From the IMG/VR virus record IMGVR_UViG_2565956719_000013: a stretch of 41,123 nt of DNA. The stretch is one strand, 5' to 3'. Shown here piece by piece: positions 3,371-35,554 of this stretch (position 1 is the first letter of the stretch; every line of letters begins with the position of its first letter). The stretch comes from a virus. Lineage: Duplodnaviria; Heunggongvirae; Uroviricota; Caudoviricetes. The notes beneath the pieces are model-generated. The model made no database searches and had not been told where the DNA came from. It worked only from the letters and a program-made list of their open reading frames with translations. Made by a program: the position numbers and the translations under genes.

Positions 3371-3397
3371 CCCGCAATATTTTGCGGGCTTTTTTTT
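3371..3397 (+). terminator. intrinsic terminator oriented for + strand only
   Basis: stem CCCGCAA (3371-3377) / TTGCGGG (3382-3388), loop TATT, T8 tract 3390-3397 overlapping tailspike stop; no T-tract in the minus orientation. Confidence 0.5.
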
Positions 3398-6300
3398 AAC
3401 GTTCTTCCAGAGACTGAACCCGCTCTTTTATCTTATCCATTTCTCTGCGCTGCCATGCTGCCTCGATATAGAATAAGAGATCAGGTCTGACCCCCCATCT
3501 AGATCCTGCTGGCGTTATTTCAACGCGCTCAATGATGTCTTCTATTACCATCACTGGATTATCATCCTCATCAACAATGATGCTCCCGTCATTATCAGTC
3601 AGCGGCATTTCCCTTTGGCCAGTAATGACGTCATCATATACTGCGGGATAATCGTCATAGCAAAGAAAGGCATAGCGGCATGTTGTGCTTTCTTCTTCCA
3701 TGAGTCCGTGAGAAATAAGAACATCACGAAGTTGCTGCGCGATTACACCATGATGTATCCTCGCCCCTTCTTCCCCCTTTATAGCGACAGCGTTCAGCCA
3801 TTTATAAGCGATATACCTGACGTCACCCCAGGCATCCAGCAATGTTTCGTCAGGAGAGACCGGCTCTGTCTTTAATGTTCCGTCACTGGTAACCACAGGA
3901 TTGGAGCCAAGATAAACTATCGAGAACCTGTTTCCCGGACCACCAAGAGCATTTACATTATCAAGATAAGGTTTAACATCTCCGTTCTCAAAAAGATGTT
4001 CGAGTGCGTTATATACCGCGCGACGTGGAGTACTGCTTCTGGAACCATGCAACGTTATCATTGCACCATCTGCTGAAGACGTTGTTTCACCGCCGCTAAC
4101 GATTAATCTCTGAGCGGTAACATCATCAGACGGTACTTTCTTCGCAATAATGGCGTAATTACCCTCAAGTTTGACTTCCGCGCGAACTTGTCCTGATGTA
4201 CCTGCATGGACAGTCAGTGACTGGACGGCAACATCATCTGTGAAATCAACGGGTACAGGAACCGTCCTCACGCCTGACGTCGACATAAAAGTAGGAAGCG
4301 TTCTGTTAGGAGTGGCTCCGTAGACAAAATCCCTTGAAACAAATTCTTCCTGTTTAATTTTCACCCTGAAACAATACAAATCAGCCGGGTGACCATCGTG
4401 AACATAAGGATATTTTCTGTTGTTATCCCCTATGCTCCATGGGTTTAGAAAGTCTTCCCCACCGAAAATGTAGTACAGCCAGTTGTCTTTGATACAAACT
4501 GAACCAACACCAACCGCAGAGTTAACTATTCCGCCCTGATAAATCTGATCAGTAACATTAACCCACTCTACATTATCCAGACTCCACTCATTGACGTTAA
4601 CTCTGGTCATAAATGTTCTTGGATAATTTCCTGCATAACGGTTATCAGGTTCTCCTCCTTCCCACTCACCAAATGCGCGCTCACTGCCAAAAATAATCAG
4701 CTCATCGCCAACTTTGGCAAAAGGAAGGTTTGAGTGATGAACATTATTTGGGAAGCGAAGAGAATTCCATGATGTACCTAAATCAGAGCTTCTGTGCAAT
4801 GAACTACCGGGTTGAGTACTTAATGTCCCCCTGGTCGTCAGATACAGAATGCCATCATAATATTTTACACATGGCTCAGATGCATTCGCCTCATATTCTG
4901 CAGGTATGCGTCTGCGAACAAAGCTACCAGGAGAACCGAAAGCATCAGAGAAATAGAGTATCCCAAGCTCGCGTGGACCAATATCACCATTATGGTAGCC
5001 AACAGCAAAACTGTTATCGCTAATCGTCGCAAAACTGTGAATCTCAGTAACAGGAGTGCTTCCGTCAACAAAAGAAGGAATAGTTCCAAGACTGGTTTTT
5101 CTCCATGGTGACGAGTGAAATGATGTACCAAAACTCCAGTATCTACCCTCGTTATTCTGATCCACATCCTGGGTATTTTGCGTCGTAACTGTAAAAGTAT
5201 TTTTATCAATAACAGTAGTCACCGTCATATTCCCGGTAACACCTGTAACACCAGAGTTTGAGAAGTTGACAAAATCACCAGCAAATAATCCGTGATCAGT
5301 AATGCGAATATAAGCGACTTGCTGATTTGCTGCTTTCGTTATACCACCATAAACGCGAAGGCTGCGACTCATTGGGCGATCCCACAACTCTGCAACCTGC
5401 AGTTTATTTCCGCTCACGGTCCGCGTCTCAATTACAGCAAAAAGGCGATTTCTGACAACCCCCATACTCATGCAGTGATAGTTAACTGTGGGATAGTTTT
5501 CATGTAAATCTGTAAGCCATTCCGGCGTTGTCCAGGTCTTCCCGTCATCTCCTGAGCGAACCCATGCAACATGGAGGTTATTTACACCATGGCGGTCTCC
5601 AGCCATAAAAGGCGCATAGATGACATTGTCATATACAAACGTTTTATCCTGCGTCCAGGCGTTGTACCACGGTGTATCTGTAATTTTAAATAACTCTCCC
5701 TGGATAAAATCTTCAGAAGCATAAAAAAGAGGCTGGCCCGGTATTCTCTCAAATAAAAAACGAGCATTTTTAAATCGACTGACATCCGGAAGAGTTGATA
5801 CTTTAAAAGTAAGCCCTAATCCGTCAATTTTATAACCTGGAGATGAGGCTTCAAGGCACGCGCTTATTGCAGTGGAATCGTCATTTATACCATCACCAAC
5901 AGCTCCAAAATCTTTGGGGCTAATAGCATCACGCATTTTATCCTGGAACGTTCGGTACACAGCCCCAGAACCATACTGAATAAACCAACCAAAACCACCA
6001 ACAACCCCGGCGATTGCAGCATCGACATAATTACGCATTGAGCGATTATTTACAGCGTCCTGCTCAAATGATGGATCTGCAAGGTTAGAAATTTTGTTTT
6101 GCTTTGCATCGTAATATTTTGCAAGCAAAGATGGTTTCATCAATGCACGTCTGAACCACCCAAAACATTGCTGGATCAGCATCGTCAGGTAGTCAAAGGC
6201 ATCTTCATGCACTTCGGGGAAAAATTTTCCCTGATTGCGAAGGTCTGTCTCCTGCACTACATCAAGCACACGATCTATCGTAATTCGCCATCCAGTAGCA

Positions 6301-6515
6301 AGCGGAGACGGAAGAACCACAGAACCGCCACTATAAGTGCCCGCCCCAGTTACCGTATAACCGGTATCCAGAACCAATTCTGTTACGTTCCCGTTCAGGT
6401 CAGACACCTGAACAACCAGGTCTGATTTTCTGAAAATTCGAAAAGTATACGGAAACGACGTCGTAACGCCGTTACCGGTGTATTCGTTGTGGTCAACTTC
6501 GGTTGAGACCGTCAT
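3396..6515 (-). CDS. tailspike: T7 gp17-like N-terminal anchor, Asp-box domain, C-terminal intramolecular-chaperone-type domain; candidate endosialidase
   Basis: 1039 aa; GGAG RBS; N-terminal pattern resembles T7 tail-fibre N-domain; two Asp-box motifs (SGDDGKTW, SSDLGTSW); C-terminal SDGTLK...IAQQ... region resembles S74-type autocleaving chaperone domains. Confidence 0.85.
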   Translation of the reverse strand: MTVSTEVDHNEYTGNGVTTSFPYTFRIFRKSDLVVQVSDLNGNVTELVLDTGYTVTGAGTYSGGSVVLPSPLATGWRITIDRVLDVVQETDLRNQGKFFPEVHEDAFDYLTMLIQQCFGWFRRALMKPSLLAKYYDAKQNKISNLADPSFEQDAVNNRSMRNYVDAAIAGVVGGFGWFIQYGSGAVYRTFQDKMRDAISPKDFGAVGDGINDDSTAISACLEASSPGYKIDGLGLTFKVSTLPDVSRFKNARFLFERIPGQPLFYASEDFIQGELFKITDTPWYNAWTQDKTFVYDNVIYAPFMAGDRHGVNNLHVAWVRSGDDGKTWTTPEWLTDLHENYPTVNYHCMSMGVVRNRLFAVIETRTVSGNKLQVAELWDRPMSRSLRVYGGITKAANQQVAYIRITDHGLFAGDFVNFSNSGVTGVTGNMTVTTVIDKNTFTVTTQNTQDVDQNNEGRYWSFGTSFHSSPWRKTSLGTIPSFVDGSTPVTEIHSFATISDNSFAVGYHNGDIGPRELGILYFSDAFGSPGSFVRRRIPAEYEANASEPCVKYYDGILYLTTRGTLSTQPGSSLHRSSDLGTSWNSLRFPNNVHHSNLPFAKVGDELIIFGSERAFGEWEGGEPDNRYAGNYPRTFMTRVNVNEWSLDNVEWVNVTDQIYQGGIVNSAVGVGSVCIKDNWLYYIFGGEDFLNPWSIGDNNRKYPYVHDGHPADLYCFRVKIKQEEFVSRDFVYGATPNRTLPTFMSTSGVRTVPVPVDFTDDVAVQSLTVHAGTSGQVRAEVKLEGNYAIIAKKVPSDDVTAQRLIVSGGETTSSADGAMITLHGSRSSTPRRAVYNALEHLFENGDVKPYLDNVNALGGPGNRFSIVYLGSNPVVTSDGTLKTEPVSPDETLLDAWGDVRYIAYKWLNAVAIKGEEGARIHHGVIAQQLRDVLISHGLMEEESTTCRYAFLCYDDYPAVYDDVITGQREMPLTDNDGSIIVDEDDNPVMVIEDIIERVEITPAGSRWGVRPDLLFYIEAAWQRREMDKIKERVQSLEER

Positions 6516-6619
6516 GTTAAATCTCCAGATAGTCGCAGCACCCGTTGCGCCGCATATCTGGTTATTCTATTACCTGAAAAACCACATATGGATAGAAAGA
6601 CTGTAAATACGAATAGATA

Positions 6620-6634
6620 TTACCTTTCAGGTAA
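6620..6634. promoter_or_regulatory. operator-like dyad TTACC-N5-GGTAA
   Basis: ATTACCtttcaGGTAAT, perfect dyad between tailspike start (6515) and SOS-box gene. Confidence 0.55.
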
Positions 6635-6671
6635 TTTGCAAAACGTGCTGGATAGCAAACAAATTATTTGC

Positions 6672-6691
6672 TACTGTATAAATATACAGTT
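6672..6691 (+). promoter_or_regulatory. LexA (SOS) box
   Basis: TACTGTATAAATATACAGTT; CTGT-N8-ACAG core at 6674-6689, ~20 bp upstream of ATG 6711. Confidence 0.7.
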
Positions 6692-6710
6692 ATTGCATGG
6701 AGAAGATAAG

Positions 6711-6968
6711 ATGCAGCAGTATCACTATCCACTGGAAGACGGATTTACCGAAAGGATTCACACGCCGGGAGGCGTCAGGTCACTGGTGGAGGGATCGCAC
6801 TTGATGAAATTACTCCGGGATCTCGATAAGGATGGATTTAATGTCGATGGCCCACTTGCCGAACTGACTGCACTGATTAACTACGTCACCAGCTCACAGA
6901 TGTCTATGCAGGATCTGCAAACACATCTCGACTATTGTGCCGAACAATTACGAAAACAAACCAGATAA
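6711..6968 (+). CDS. SOS-regulated small protein, paralog of antirepressor C-terminal domain (candidate antirepressor)
   Basis: GGAGAAG RBS; 85 aa; ~35-40% identical by eye to C-terminal ~80 aa of the 7284..7994 product (shared GV, LM-LL, DG, AELT, QTH positions). Confidence 0.6.
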   Translation: MQQYHYPLEDGFTERIHTPGGVRSLVEGSHLMKLLRDLDKDGFNVDGPLAELTALINYVTSSQMSMQDLQTHLDYCAEQLRKQTR

Positions 6969-6999
6969 GATTTGAAATTACCAATAGGAGTGCTTATAT

Positions 7000-7014
7000 T
7001 TACCTTTGCGGTAA
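7000..7014. promoter_or_regulatory. operator-like dyad TTACC-N5-GGTAA
   Basis: TTTACCtttgcGGTAAA, perfect dyad upstream of antirepressor leader. Confidence 0.55.
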
Positions 7015-7104
7015 ATTTACATCGCACTCCTCTTGTGCCATAGTAATCGGGCACTGGCAAAATCCAGTGCCGGGATTGGCGTCCCGGGTTACTAAGTGGC
7101 GCAT

Positions 7105-7127
7105 ACCACGCCAGACGTGGTTTTTTT
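7105..7127 (+). terminator. intrinsic terminator/attenuator in antirepressor leader
   Basis: stem ACCACG (7105-7110) / CGTGGT (7116-7121), loop CCAGA, T7 tract to 7127. Confidence 0.55.
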
Positions 7128-7283
7128 ATGCGTTAAGCACAGCTATATCCGAATTATGGTGGGCTGGGCAGGGGTCCGAAAGGACGCCGGTACCACTTAG
7201 GCCGGTACGCCAACCTTGTCCAGTTCACCACCAGTAATTGGCGTTGCGGTGGTGATTAAAATCACTAAGTGGAGATAACCACC

Positions 7284-7994
7284 ATGGCTAATGCTCAAAC
7301 TGCCATCTTCAAATTTGAATCTGTTAACCCTATCCGTTCCATCATTATCGATGGCCAACCATGGTTTGTAGCCCAAGACGTTTGTAGTGCGCTGCGTATC
7401 CAAAACGTCACCCAAGCACTTGAAAAACTGGATGATGATGAAAGGTCTATGTTCAACATAGGGCATGAACATCGTGCAATTTTTGACAGCCGAGTAAAAG
7501 AGATCAACATTATCTCCGAGTCAGGCCTCTACACACTGATCCTCCGCTGCCGCGACGCAGTGACACCAGGCACTATCCCCTACCGCTTTCGTAAATGGGT
7601 TACAGGTGAGGTTCTTCCTCAGATCCGCCGCACCGGAAGTTACATTAAAAACTCGCTCCCGCAGGAAGAACGCATAAAGATGGTTGCCGACCAGGTAGCC
7701 AACGCCACGGCGTCAGCAGTAATGCAGGCGATGAAGATAGAGAACAAAACCTACAGTGCCCCACTGAAGCCCGGCTACCGTAGCCTGATTCATTCGCCGT
7801 CTGGTGTTCTCGGCCTGACGGAGAACTCACTGCTGATGAATCTGCTGAACCAGTTACAGGACGACGGGCACGACGTATCGGGCGCGGCGGCGGAGCTGAC
7901 CACCATGTTCTGCTACATCGTCGGTGTGAGCAAATGCCTGCGTGATATCCAGACCCACGCGGAGTACATCAACGACAAGGCAGGGTTCTTCTGA
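7284..7994 (+). CDS. antirepressor with N-terminal Bro-N domain
   Basis: ATG 7284 with AAGTGGAG RBS; N-terminus FKFESVNPIRSIIIDGQPWFVAQDVCSAL matches Bro-N pattern; C-terminal domain paralogous to 6711..6968 product. Confidence 0.7.
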   Translation: MANAQTAIFKFESVNPIRSIIIDGQPWFVAQDVCSALRIQNVTQALEKLDDDERSMFNIGHEHRAIFDSRVKEINIISESGLYTLILRCRDAVTPGTIPYRFRKWVTGEVLPQIRRTGSYIKNSLPQEERIKMVADQVANATASAVMQAMKIENKTYSAPLKPGYRSLIHSPSGVLGLTENSLLMNLLNQLQDDGHDVSGAAAELTTMFCYIVGVSKCLRDIQTHAEYINDKAGFF

Positions 7995-8065
7995 CGGCGG
8001 CGGCACAGGGACGTGCCTTTAAATAATTCTGTACAGATTGCAGACTGGGGGTGAATAGCGTACTA

Positions 8066-8080
8066 TTACCTCAAGGGTAA
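8066..8080. promoter_or_regulatory. operator-like dyad TTACC-N5-GGTAA
   Basis: ATTACCtcaagGGTAAG, perfect dyad ~60 bp upstream of ATG 8140. Confidence 0.55.
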
Positions 8081-8139
8081 GAAAGCATTTTTAATCTTCC
8101 CTTCAAAACGCGTCCTGTAGCCAAACATGGGAGGACGAA

Positions 8140-8772
8140 ATGAGAACAAATACAACAAGAAAAGCGATGCCATACATTATCCCAGAAGCAGATTTCGATA
8201 GAAAACTGAACATGTCTGAGAAGAACACTAGTCACACCGAAAGCTACTTAGCGAAAGGTGTGGTTGATTTCGTTCTTCCGGGATTCACAACACCTTATGG
8301 TTATCGCCTTGTAAAATCTTGTAATGGCGATCATTACAGAATGATTACTACCAGCGATACTCCAGAAACGGTGTATGCGGTTAAGTTAATCTTTCGGGAA
8401 GATATCGTCGAAGCCAAAAGAACATGTACGCAGATCATGGTATGGCGTACGCCTAATGTTATTCATGACCGTGCTGTTCATGGTTTGCCTCAGATTTTTT
8501 TTCAGTTCTTCCTAGAGCAATATGCGATCGTTGTATCTGATGAGCAACAAACAATCGATGGGAGAAGATTCTGGGAAAGAATGATTTCTTGGGCTATAAA
8601 CACCCCGGGATATAATGTATACGTTTCAGATGGCTCTGAAGAAGATAGACCTCTTAGCTTCATGACATCATGGGATGATTTCTATAGCCAGTGGGCTGAT
8701 TTCTGTTGGGGCAGTGATAAAGATGTGCATACCCACAGACTACTGGTTATAAGCAAAGATAAACTGCATTAA
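8140..8772 (+). CDS. hypothetical protein, 210 aa, orphan accessory gene
   Basis: GGGAGGA RBS; own upstream dyad and downstream terminator; no motif recognised. Confidence 0.65.
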   Translation: MRTNTTRKAMPYIIPEADFDRKLNMSEKNTSHTESYLAKGVVDFVLPGFTTPYGYRLVKSCNGDHYRMITTSDTPETVYAVKLIFREDIVEAKRTCTQIMVWRTPNVIHDRAVHGLPQIFFQFFLEQYAIVVSDEQQTIDGRRFWERMISWAINTPGYNVYVSDGSEEDRPLSFMTSWDDFYSQWADFCWGSDKDVHTHRLLVISKDKLH

Positions 8773-25961: not shown

Positions 25962-26038
25962 GTGGCATTAGCTCAGTCGGACAGAGCAACCGCCTTCTAA
26001 GCGGTTGGTCGCAGGTTCGAATCCTGCATGCCACGCCA
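25962..26038 (+). tRNA. tRNA-Arg (anticodon UCU)
   Basis: 77 nt; acceptor stem GTGGCAT/ATGCCAC, anticodon stem ACCGC/GCGGT with loop CTTCTAA, T-arm GCAGG-TTCGAAT-CCTGC, discriminator G, CCA encoded. Confidence 0.85.
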
Positions 26039-34969: not shown

Positions 34970-35554
34970 ATGAAAAGTATCCAGGACGTCCGCAGGCAAA
35001 ATCTCAACGACTTGATCGACCGTGAATTCAATGGTGTTCAGACGCGGATGGCAGAAAAACTTGGAACTCAGGCAAATCTGGTAAACCGCTGGGCTCTTGG
35101 CAAGAAGGTTATCGGCGACCAGGTTGCGCGAAAAATTGAAGCTGCCGCCAATAAACCCCGTAACTGGCTTGATATTGATCGCTCGCTTTCTCAGGAGGGT
35201 TTTCAGCCTGTCGGCCCGAGCGATATAGGTCAGCTGGCGGCTCACAACCTGGAACGCTGGATGAGCGAAAGCCGCGACCTTTCAACGCAGGGAAAACTAC
35301 ACCGCGCATCCGGCGTCGCCCAGGTGACAATCAGCCGCCTGTTAAACAATGAGGTCAGCGTTTCCATTTCCACCCTGGAGAATGTTGCATCCGCATTCGG
35401 GCGTCACGGCTATGAACTACTGATTCACCCGCACGACCCTGCGACTATCAACTATGACCGCTCACGCTACGCATTGTTACCCGAAACCGAGAAAGCAAAG
35501 ATCGAAAGTTACATTGAATTTGTCATCAACCAGAACGAAAAAAACAAACAATAA
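34970..35554 (+). CDS. CI-like repressor with two HTH domains, no S24 peptidase domain
   Basis: 194 aa; HTH-like segments QTRMAEKLGTQANLVNRW and SGVAQVTISRLLNNEVSVSISTLENVASAF; no Ser-Lys protease region; poor RBS; 7-codon upstream mini-ORF ends in ATGA at the start. Confidence 0.65.
   Translation: MKSIQDVRRQNLNDLIDREFNGVQTRMAEKLGTQANLVNRWALGKKVIGDQVARKIEAAANKPRNWLDIDRSLSQEGFQPVGPSDIGQLAAHNLERWMSESRDLSTQGKLHRASGVAQVTISRLLNNEVSVSISTLENVASAFGRHGYELLIHPHDPATINYDRSRYALLPETEKAKIESYIEFVINQNEKNKQ

Follow-up and report, generated by a model that had tools for sequence, protein, structure and literature searches.

A probable c4/IsrK-type RNA immunity cassette in the structured leader of a Bro-N antirepressor gene of a phiV10/epsilon15-like podophage

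Introduction

Phages P1 and P7 carry the immI locus c4-icd-ant, in which c4 RNA acts in trans and determines heteroimmunity (PMC12197685); P1 c4 is processed by RNase P (PMC11143913, citing Hartmann 1995). The Gifsy-1 prophage carries isrK-'orf45'(STnc1160)-anrP. There, IsrK supplied in trans raises translation of anrP 139-fold and its transcription 8-fold, and the middle element was taken for an ORF and a structure of the mRNA rather than for a c4-type antisense RNA (Hershko-Shalev et al. 2016, PMC4825925). STnc1160 and IsrK accumulate in Salmonella as separate stable RNAs. The P1 route is a translational block followed by Rho polarity, and the Gifsy-1 route is coupling through an upstream ORF. 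In P4, the CI RNA (seqA, seqC) acts by premature termination; it is cut by RNase P from the leader of its own operon and has complementary sites upstream and downstream (PMC4825925). The sar RNA of P22 is a small RNA that blocks antirepressor translation.

Here we analyse positions 7016-7290 of a phage DNA of 41,123 nucleotides (IMG/VR record IMGVR_UViG_2565956719_000013; "the window" denotes this whole stretch). The element is a phiV10/epsilon15-like podophage. An original prediction, made from the letters alone, had described 7021-7290 as a structured leader controlling the antirepressor gene behind it. We find that this "structured leader" is a new copy of a known kind of cassette, that of P1 c4 and Gifsy-1 IsrK, and nothing out of the ordinary. 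We estimate at about 85% the probability that 7016-7290 is an immI-type RNA immunity cassette homologous both to c4-icd-ant of P1/P7 and to isrK-'orf45'(STnc1160)-anrP of Gifsy-1.

Results

Homology, architecture, folds, accessibility and a three-way complementarity with covariation were all observed directly at the cassette. In the window, and in 16/16 relatives tested, the Rfam models isrK and C4 exceed their gathering thresholds; the same holds for both in Gifsy-1 and for C4 in P1. The order of parts agrees point by point with the curated P1 annotation (operator, promoters, a1, b1, c4, a2, b2, RBS), and the cassette is kept across many genera. All elements listed in the original prediction, namely the hairpins, the terminator, the 8-9-mers, the segments GGTGGTGA, TCACCACC and ACCACC, the Shine-Dalgarno (SD) sequence and the ATG, were found where it had placed them. 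That they are chance repeats and hairpins devoid of function has next to no probability: the individual elements are short and nothing else speaks for such a view, while Rfam E-values of 1e-12 to 1e-13, conservation over many genera and compensatory changes already refute it.

The cassette opens with a predicted sigma-70 promoter on the + strand, as are all transcribed features below (7016-7044; -35 TTTACA at 7016-21, extended -10 TGcCATAGT at 7036-44; promoter scan), which is kept in all phiV10-like relatives. Its predicted start, about 7051, is position 1 of the Rfam isrK model. An operator-type perfect dyad, ATTTACC-TTTGC-GGTAAAT (6998-7016, no strand assigned), overlaps or abuts the -35. 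The dyad core TTACC-N5-GGTAA recurs at 6620, 8066, 25625, 28793, 32507, 32569, 34515, 34900, 35612 and 35674; with up to 3 mismatches allowed, it has 45 matches where 7.9 are expected, and the family clusters around an HTH_3 repressor candidate (34970-35554). By analogy, the dyad at 6998-7016 would be the counterpart of the C1 operator Oc4 of P1, and a repressor would bind there.

The first RNA of the cassette is an IsrK-like, or a1b1, small RNA of 77 nt (7051-7127; Rfam isrK, RF01394, 67.7 bits, GA 50, E 1.2e-13), with two 5' hairpins, a linker and a Rho-independent terminator. Hairpin 1 joins GGCACTGG (7050-57) to CCAGTGCC (7064-71), of which 7051-57/7064-70 fall within the isrK RNA, and hairpin 2 joins CGGGA (7071-75) to TCCCG (7082-86). 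The terminator, ACCACG-CCAGA-CGTGGT-T7 at 7105-7127, was found again by a terminator scan. The fold has a z of -2.4; across 18 diverse loci the hairpins are 96-97% paired, with compensatory changes, and the terminator is only 62% paired on the MAFFT alignment. The c4-a1b1 model (RF03163) stays marginally under its threshold at 7038-7090 (44.1 bits vs GA 46.7) and is passed by phi296, Stx2 II, P1 and Gifsy-1; as this motif overlaps the isrK match, both models describe the same element. The hairpins and terminator had thus been seen correctly in the original prediction, and their identity as the IsrK/a1b1 RNA had been missed. This RNA holds two sites. The loop of hairpin 2 presents site a1, TTGGCGT (7076-82), which corresponds by homology to the a1 annotated in P1 and is complementary to the segment a' at 7207-13 (duplex -10.3 kcal/mol). 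Site b1, ACTAAGTGG (7091-99, pairing core 7092-99), is complementary to the loop b' (duplex -12.6 kcal/mol).

The second RNA is a c4 antisense RNA (7158-7232, ends predicted after P1 c4). Rfam C4 (RF01695) matches over its full length at 7152-7235 with 66.0 bits (GA 45, E 6.4e-12), close to the 68.8 bits of P1, and P1 c4, cited in the original prediction as an analogy, is a homologue. The RNA folds into a long closing stem around two inner hairpins, followed by a 3' ACC(A) tail. Its minimum free energy is -43.1 kcal/mol, the centroid equals this structure, z is -4.5 and 0/200 shuffles are as stable; the outer stem is 100% paired in the 18 loci. The 12-mer GAATTATGGTGGG is identical in P1 around the annotated 5' end of c4, and the 3' end in the window reads CCACC(A). 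By homology with P1, RNase P would excise c4 here too. ARAGORN returned no tRNA or tmRNA match at the CCACCA end, and the microRNA-size RNA 24B_1 of the Stx phage Phi24B belongs to another locus, lom-vb_24B_43.

Two segments of c4 are exposed. The specificity loop b', CCACTTAG (7193-7200, unpaired probability 0.85), pairs with b1 and b2 at -12.6 kcal/mol, and the single-stranded segment a', ACGCCAA (7207-13, unpaired probability 0.99), pairs with a1 and a2 at -10.3 kcal/mol. The repeat noticed earlier in three copies therefore consists of b1 (7091-99), the b' loop (7193-7200) and b2 (7264-72); its middle copy is indeed complementary, as an exposed loop of a separate c4 RNA with two-part targets and not as plain leader. 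A second specificity element, TTGGCGT at 7076-82 and 7238-44 with its complement ACGCCAA at 7207-13, had gone unnoticed, as had the fact that 7152-7235 is an RNA gene of its own. Co-folding in RNAcofold, with either the leader or IsrK as partner of c4, yielded no intermolecular pairs of note, since the program cannot form pseudoknots and loop-loop contacts are of that kind; the contacts were judged by accessibility and duplex energies in its place. Elsewhere in the window there is no further tandem of a and b targets for c4, the only other matches being lone 8-mers at 2503, 40596 and 35792.

The second set of targets lies in the leader of the antirepressor gene. Site a2, TTGGCGT (7238-44), sits in a small hairpin (GUAA 7234-37 / UUGC 7244-47) and is collinear with the annotated P1 a2. 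Site b2, ACTAAGTGG (7264-72), overlaps the SD sequence GGAG (7271-74), and b' pairs with its positions 7265-72; b1 and b2 are the only two exact copies of this 9-mer in the window. The gene itself (7284-7994) encodes a Bro-N antirepressor of 236 aa (Pfam Bro-N 9.5e-20; PHROG anti-repressor Ant 5e-56), whose C-terminal domain is 42% identical to an SPC32H-type small Ant encoded at 6711-6968. The small ant gene beside the cassette is presumably under SOS (LexA) control. In phage ZX5, overexpression of ORF4, which occupies the position homologous to the Bro-N gene, lowers lysogeny (PMC9782041).

We then assessed covariation by counting pairs in the 18 diverse loci, with slid partners as controls. 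Overall, 88% of the positions are paired vs 37-46% with a slid partner, and 35 pairs show two-sided changes. Compensatory changes in relatives accompany the conservation of every helix and of both pairings between RNAs. Pairing reaches 94% for a1:a' (two-sided changes in 4/6 pairs), 86% for b1:b' (7/8 pairs) and 97.5% for a':a2 (5/7 pairs). An alignment-free comparison covered 91 distinct c4 loci with 67 different b' loops and 22 different a' segments. A complement of at least 7 nt was present on both sides of c4 in 92% of cognate loci vs 4% of controls for b, and in 93% vs 2% for a. These values come from a strict test that allows at most one G-U pair, unlimited G-U pairs giving a background of 21-29%; the upstream second copy of the target (a1, b1) was seen in 85/91 loci when thresholds were permissive and in 92-93% when they were strict. 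In the 91 loci, b2 pairing most frequently ends 8-11 nt upstream of the next start codon. Sequestration of the SD by complementary 8-9-mers, and hence control of the antirepressor at the RNA level, had been proposed in the original prediction, and the complementarities point the same way. Its short terminated or processed RNA would likewise correspond to the predicted 77-nt isrK RNA (7051-7127) and to c4.

Between a2 and b2 lies a putative switch segment, GGTGGTGA (7248-55), which can pair either with the 3' strand of c4, TCACCACC (7225-32), or with ACCACC (7278-83) directly 5' of the ATG at 7284. Both pairings had been foreseen and are conserved, at 96% in the 18 diverse loci: the helix with 7278-83 is 96.3% paired, and that with 7225-32 is 96.5% paired with 3 compensatory pairs, P1 included (CTGCCACC : GGTAGCAG). 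The switch-segment helix has at least 7 bp in 46/86 loci (mean 6.4 vs 3.8 for shuffles). Could the leader then be a purely cis-acting switch, in which alternative hairpins of one transcript control both transcriptional attenuation and access to the SD, and no RNA acts in trans? The conserved alternative helices would suit it, as would the intrinsic terminator in the leader and the conformers A and B that the Gifsy-1 authors describe for the read-through RNA (PMC4825925). We nevertheless consider it very unlikely. The central element is a bona fide member of the C4 family with an RNase P context common to P1, P1/P7 c4 works in trans, and the Salmonella homologues are separate stable RNAs. Moreover, a and b types assort independently: phiV10-like phages have 3 a-types and 3 b-types, in 6/9 possible combinations, which fits a diffusible specificity determinant. 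What stands of the attenuation or anti-SD switch of the original prediction is masking of the SD, not a primarily cis-acting attenuator of competing hairpins.

Comparison with Gifsy-1 gives the pairing experimental ground in a homologue. The a-type is identical (UUGGCGU / ACGCCAA), the geometry near-identical, GGUGGUGA conserved and b2 lies over the SD of an antirepressor there as well, whereas the b-type is UCACCG / CGGUGA. Its 'orf45/STnc1160' element belongs to the C4 family of RNAs. The compensatory mutants published for Gifsy-1, G28A/C162U and G31A/C159U, sit exactly on a1:a' pairs. In that homologue, both a1:a' pairing and activation by the short RNA are experimentally proven (PMC4825925). 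The same study found that a1 mutations in cis raised, not lowered, expression (PMC4825925), an effect that the simple decoy model fails to predict.

Gifsy-1 also offers another mode of control, in which the IsrK-like RNA would activate an ORF starting at AUG 7157 and thereby switch ant on by translational coupling. Mutations of the orf45 start and stop codons lower activation in Gifsy-1 (PMC4825925), and AUG 7157 is conserved with its context. In Gifsy-1, however, a 45-codon ORF runs from the AUG at the c4 5' end to the anrP start. The ORF in the window has 14 codons and ends at TAG 7199-7201 within the b' loop, 83 nt short of the ant ATG, so that it does not overlap the antirepressor start codon. 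Its length is not conserved and varies between 3 and >50 codons in the 91 loci, no SD precedes AUG 7157, and the conserved AUGGUGGG doubles as RNase P site and c4 stem. Such positive control is thus highly improbable here.

A layer resembling P4 may be added to c4 action; we propose it tentatively and think it more unlikely than not. In the window, UGGCG (7097-7101), overlapping b1, can pair with CGCCA (7109-13) in the 5' half of the terminator, which is suggestive of an antiterminator. By binding a1/b1 of the nascent leader, c4 would break this helix, enforce termination at 7127 and so limit both itself and ant. The cross-helix folds in the nascent RNA of 63/66 loci, the cognate duplex has -7.3 kcal/mol vs -4.1 for shuffled partners, and in 24/32 loci a variant 5' strand matches its own terminator (-6.3) more closely than those of the main class (-4.0). 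The 8-fold effect of IsrK on a transcriptional fusion and the P4 CI/seqA precedent cited by the Gifsy-1 authors point in the same direction (PMC4825925). Against it, the antiterminator helix is 51% paired on the MAFFT alignment, no better than controls; the non-cognate energy is also low (-6.25), because GGCG/CGCC are common to most loci; and the Gifsy-1 authors' own test of the termination idea gave no support (PMC4825925). The two helices could moreover coexist in some loci, whose partner strand falls entirely within the loop of the terminator.

Discussion

Experiments on P1 and Gifsy-1 suggest how the cassette would work, by c4 processing, repression of translation and decoy action. Transcription would initiate near 7051 from the promoter overlapped by the repressor-type operator, and the terminator at 7105-27 would halt most transcripts, yielding the 77-nt IsrK-like RNA with the decoy sites a1 and b1. 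Read-through transcripts would contain c4 RNA (about 7158-7232), which RNase P would excise at U7157|G7158, by homology with P1, so that a stable tRNA-acceptor-like RNA accumulates. Through its loop b' and its single strand a', c4 would bind the ant leader at b2 and a2, respectively, and cover the SD; synthesis of the Bro-N antirepressor would be blocked and the prophage repressor protected. The same c4 segments would also be bound by the short RNA with its a1/b1 sites, and by a1/b1 acting in cis, and c4 would thereby be counteracted. Specificity would be set by the a and b sequences, as in heteroimmunity.

As the window contains no icd- or orf45-like coupling ORF, the P1 and Gifsy-1 routes are not literally transferable. 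One conceivable arrangement, which we rate as doubtful, is a riboregulator with two checkpoints: c4 would enforce the stop at the IsrK terminator, and GGUGGUGA (7248-55) would toggle between 7225-32 and the pre-AUG 7278-83, coupling the folding and excision of c4 to accessibility of the ant start site. If true, this arrangement and the mapping of the Gifsy-1 mutants would merge P1 c4, Gifsy-1 IsrK and P4 CI into one mechanism; in the literature searched, we found no publication linking the three in this way. P4 CI resembles the c4 of the window in its RNase P processing from its own operon's leader and in its flanking complementary sites, and differs in acting by premature termination, which for the window is a proposal.

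The likeness to P1/P7 immI extends beyond the order of parts: a is carried by a hairpin loop, b follows 14-15 nt further on and b2 covers the RBS; the promoter has a repressor-type operator, b1 is followed by a terminator-like hairpin, and the same 12-mer stands around the 5' end of c4. In contrast to P1, the window has no icd, and b2 covers the antirepressor's own SD; the antirepressor is a Bro-N protein instead of Ant1/Ant2; the a and b sequences are unlike; the upstream RNA scores 67.7 bits with isrK and only 35 bits in P1; and the element is a 40-kb integrating podophage, while P1 is a plasmid prophage. The comparison with P22 sar drawn in the original prediction did not hold beyond a small RNA blocking antirepressor translation. 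Sar is an opposite-strand RNA across the ant RBS, whereas the regulator in the window is encoded on the same strand, upstream, and would act through two short contacts, loop and single strand; Rfam gave no sar match at E ≤ 1, and no minus-strand promoter was predicted in 6400-8200.

For the window, an "unknown structured leader" becomes a well-understood immunity cassette, and two RNA genes that had lacked annotation receive exact coordinates. Public records of close relatives mark this stretch with no more than a 'terminator' feature, with spurious small ORFs or with an antirepressor CDS extended at its 5' end. In the phiV10/epsilon15 lineage, a portable c4 cassette is inserted beside a small antirepressor gene under presumed SOS control. 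The findings help annotation and the prediction of cross-immunity among prophages; for the field they are incremental. The APSE phages of Hamiltonella, represented by APSE-2 in the cassette alignment, have the same cassette, with c4 and isrK upstream of a Bro-N gene (PMC7313666), but other a/b types (TTGACCT; ACTAACAAGG).

A c4/IsrK cassette precedes the antirepressor gene

The Bro-N antirepressor gene ant (7284-7994, plus strand; Bro-N domain 9.5e-20, PHROG 'anti-repressor Ant' 5e-56) is preceded by an RNA cassette (7016-7290) that adds a new member, so far unannotated, to the known system of P1 c4 and Gifsy-1 IsrK. When the window was scanned against Rfam, three matches were found in this region: isrK at 7051-7127 (67.7 bits, threshold 50, E 1e-13), C4 antisense RNA at 7152-7235 (66 bits, threshold 45, E 6e-12) and c4-a1b1 at 7038-7090, slightly below threshold (44.1 bits, threshold 46.7). 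The isrK model, which has no clan, overlaps c4-a1b1, which belongs to the C4 clan, and both describe one element.

The original prediction of a structured leader at 7021-7290 was confirmed as a whole, since inspection of the sequence located every element that it named. Two hairpins (7050-57/7064-71 and 7071-75/7082-86) precede a terminator at 7105-7127, which a pattern scan also detects; ACTAAGTGG lies at 7091-99 and 7264-72, with no further exact copies in 41 kb, and its complement CCACTTAG at 7193-7200; GGTGGTGA occupies 7248-55, TCACCACC 7225-32 and ACCACC 7278-83. A second repeated element had been missed: TTGGCGT is present at 7076-82, where it forms the loop of hairpin 2, and again at 7238-44, with its complement ACGCCAA at 7207-13. 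The proposed interpretation (attenuation, an anti-Shine-Dalgarno switch or a processed small RNA) was right in part, the feature being an unannotated member of the P1 c4/Gifsy-1 IsrK system. Read in this way, the triple 8-9-mer corresponds to b1, b' and b2, a' and b' being the segments of c4 complementary to the target sites a1/a2 and b1/b2; TCACCACC provides the 3' strand of the stem that closes c4, together with its ACC tail, and the two 5' hairpins with the terminator are the IsrK, or a1b1, RNA. The order is thus a candidate operator dyad (6998-7016), a predicted plus-strand promoter (7016-7044; -35 TTTACA at 7016-21, extended -10 at 7036-44), a1 (7076-82), b1 (7091-99), the terminator (7105-27), the predicted c4 RNA (about 7158-7232), a2 (7238-44), b2 (7264-72), the Shine-Dalgarno GGAG (7271-74) and the ant ATG (7284).

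These parts are collinear, point by point, with phage P1 as annotated in its curated GenBank record, which runs from the C1 operator Oc4 through two promoters, a1 (TTGACAG), b1 (GTTAGTGC), c4 (annotated as a 77-nt RNA), a2 and b2 to the start of icd. Window and P1 also have the 12-mer GAATTATGGTGGG in common; it surrounds the annotated 5' end of c4, where the RNase P site of P1 lies (PMC11143913, citing Hartmann et al. 1995). The c4 RNA ends in CCACC in both.

A cassette of this kind also makes up the isrK locus of Gifsy-1 (isrK 79 bits, C4 69 bits, c4-a1b1 48 bits), with an a-type identical to that of the window. Numbered from the isrK start, the published 'first AUG' (A107) falls exactly on the conserved AUGGUGGG, and the 'second AUG' (119-121) is the AUG 12 nt downstream of it. 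G28 and G31 lie within a1 (UUGGCGU, 26-32) and C159 and C162 within a' (ACGCCAA, 158-164); the compensatory pairs reported for this locus, G28A/C162U and G31A/C159U (PMC4825925), are therefore a1:a' pairs. In Gifsy-1, the short RNA supplied in trans raised antirepressor translation 139-fold and transcription 8-fold (PMC4825925). The same paper calls the middle element 'orf45' and names P4 CI/seqA as its sole relative; a link from IsrK/STnc1160 to c4 was found in no paper within the literature searched. The 'orf45/STnc1160' element itself (our locus L214; NC_010392, 34131-34316, minus strand) matches Rfam C4 with 69 bits.

Structure and pairing are conserved across the family

The predicted c4 fold has an energy of -43.1 kcal/mol (z = -4.5; 0 of 200 shuffles equally stable), and its centroid and minimum free energy structures are the same. 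Within it, the predicted probability of being unpaired is 0.85 for the b' loop and 0.99 for the a' segment, and duplex energies come to -12.6 kcal/mol (b) and -10.3 kcal/mol (a). For comparison, we gathered 79 loci from IMG/VR via the antirepressor protein and added 11 diverse phages (Tyrion, Klebsiella, Stx phages, APSE-2, Hafnia, Yersinia), P1, Gifsy-1 and 120 genome loci from a c4 core pattern search. All 16 relatives scanned contain both isrK and C4. In an 18-locus alignment the full model was 88.4% paired, against 37-46% with partners slid by 1-3 columns, with two-sided changes at 35 pairs. Pairing reached 94% for a1:a', 97.5% for a':a2, 86% for b1:b' and, on the MAFFT register, 66% for b':b2, the two b helices each showing two-sided changes at 7 of 8 pairs. 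We also used an alignment-free test on 91 distinct c4 loci (67 different b' loops, 22 different a' segments), in which a complement of at least 7 nt with at most one G-U was sought both upstream and downstream. It was found on both sides for b' in 92% of loci (4% for shuffled or non-cognate loops) and for a' in 93% (2% for controls). Among phiV10-like phages, 6 of the 9 combinations possible between three a-types and three b-types are seen, as would be expected of a two-part specificity determinant by analogy with P1/P7 heteroimmunity.

Both alternative pairings proposed for GGTGGTGA proved to be real family features. GGUGGU:ACCACC (7248-53 with 7278-83) is 96.3% paired, and TCACCACC:GGTGGTGA (7225-32 with 7248-55) is 96.5% paired with three compensatory pairs, including P1's CTGCCACC:GGTAGCAG; the latter helix reaches at least 7 bp in 46 of 86 loci. 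Through them, access to the start site may be tied to the folding or excision of c4.

A model for control of ant

The model that we propose combines the homology, architecture, structure and covarying complementarity observed here with c4 processing, repression and decoy action carried over by analogy from P1, P7 and Gifsy-1. Transcription from the promoter at 7016-7044 would start near 7051; termination at 7127 would give the a1/b1 RNA, and read-through would give c4, then excised, together with the ant leader. Bound to a2 and b2, c4 would cover the Shine-Dalgarno and keep the antirepressor off, and the a1/b1 RNA would compete for c4. A nascent-RNA helix between UGGCG at 7097-7101 (the b1 3' end) and CGCCA at 7109-13, overlapping the 5' half of the terminator, might add a further layer, which we consider rather unlikely: helices of this type are predicted in 63 of 66 loci at -7.3 kcal/mol, against -4.1 for shuffles, and variant 5' strands pair better with their own terminators than with those of the main class, but non-cognate partners also reach -6.25 kcal/mol, and the helix does not exceed controls when scored on the MAFFT alignment. 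As to how c4 would repress ant, the P1 and Gifsy-1 models both include a coupling ORF, whereas the window lacks one. The ORF from AUG 7157 has 14 codons and stops inside the b' loop, and ORF length at this position varies from 3 to >50 codons among the 91 loci; direct occlusion of the ant Shine-Dalgarno by c4 is therefore the simplest reading.

Operators, a second antirepressor and insertion of the cassette

The dyad at 6998-7016 belongs to a TTACC-N5-GGTAA family with about 11 occurrences in the window (6619-6635, 6998-7016, 8066-8080, 25625, 28793, 32507, 32569, 34515, 34900, 35612 and 35674); at up to three mismatches, 45 matches were observed against 7.9 expected. The dyads are concentrated around a candidate HTH_3 repressor (34970-35554), and each of the two antirepressor genes also has one at its promoter. 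The main repressor, whose binding we infer, probably uses them as operators; at 6998-7016 this would parallel repressor control of c4 in P1. The latter dyad sits within a longer imperfect palindrome (6987-7031, GGAGTGC ... GCACTCC), whose phiV10 counterpart is a perfect 18-nt inverted repeat with inverted spacer orientation.

Upstream of the cassette, a perfect LexA/SOS-box palindrome, TACTGTATAAATATACAGTT (6672-6691), precedes an 85-aa ORF (6711-6968) with 88% identity to the antirepressor annotated in Salmonella phage SPC32H. That phage shares the SOS box and the upstream dyad, and both the RNA cassette and the Bro-N gene are absent from it; the cassette is therefore an insertion. Epsilon15 likewise lacks the whole cassette. 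The C-terminal domain of the Bro-N protein (aa 155-228) is 42% identical (2e-15) to this small Ant, a likeness that supports an antirepressor role, and both proteins match phrog_450 and phrog_15539. The phage thus carries two antirepressors with a homologous effector domain, which would be under different controls, LexA for the small Ant and c4 RNA for Bro-N.

Over the 761 bases that surround the cassette, the match is 97.6% with Escherichia phage HEMP4 and about 89-94% with the phiV10/epsilon15 group (genus Uetakevirus). Similarity to most phiV10-group relatives (nucleotide matches H3-H13) stops exactly at the ant start codon (7286), the antirepressor gene being replaced behind an RNA cassette that is itself conserved. 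In phage ZX5, overexpression of the ORF at the corresponding position lowers lysogeny, in a paper that makes no mention of any RNA (PMC9782041). The cassette neighbours an endosialidase tailspike gene (3396-6515, minus strand). Directly downstream of ant, the dyad at 8066-8080 stands before a 210-aa ORF of unknown function (8140-8772; phrog_1349, no Pfam match), and a tRNA-Arg(TCT) gene lies at 25962-26038.

Protein annotations cover the isrK-c4 cassette in several public phage records (in the compared records L083, 531-1673; L088, 734-1279; L089, 573-1595; L090, 688-1371; L084, 932-1099; L001, 3549-3616). The annotations in question, either coding sequences extended at the 5' end ('antirepressor', 'transcriptional regulator' or 'Ash family') or small hypothetical ORFs, are likely to be wrong.
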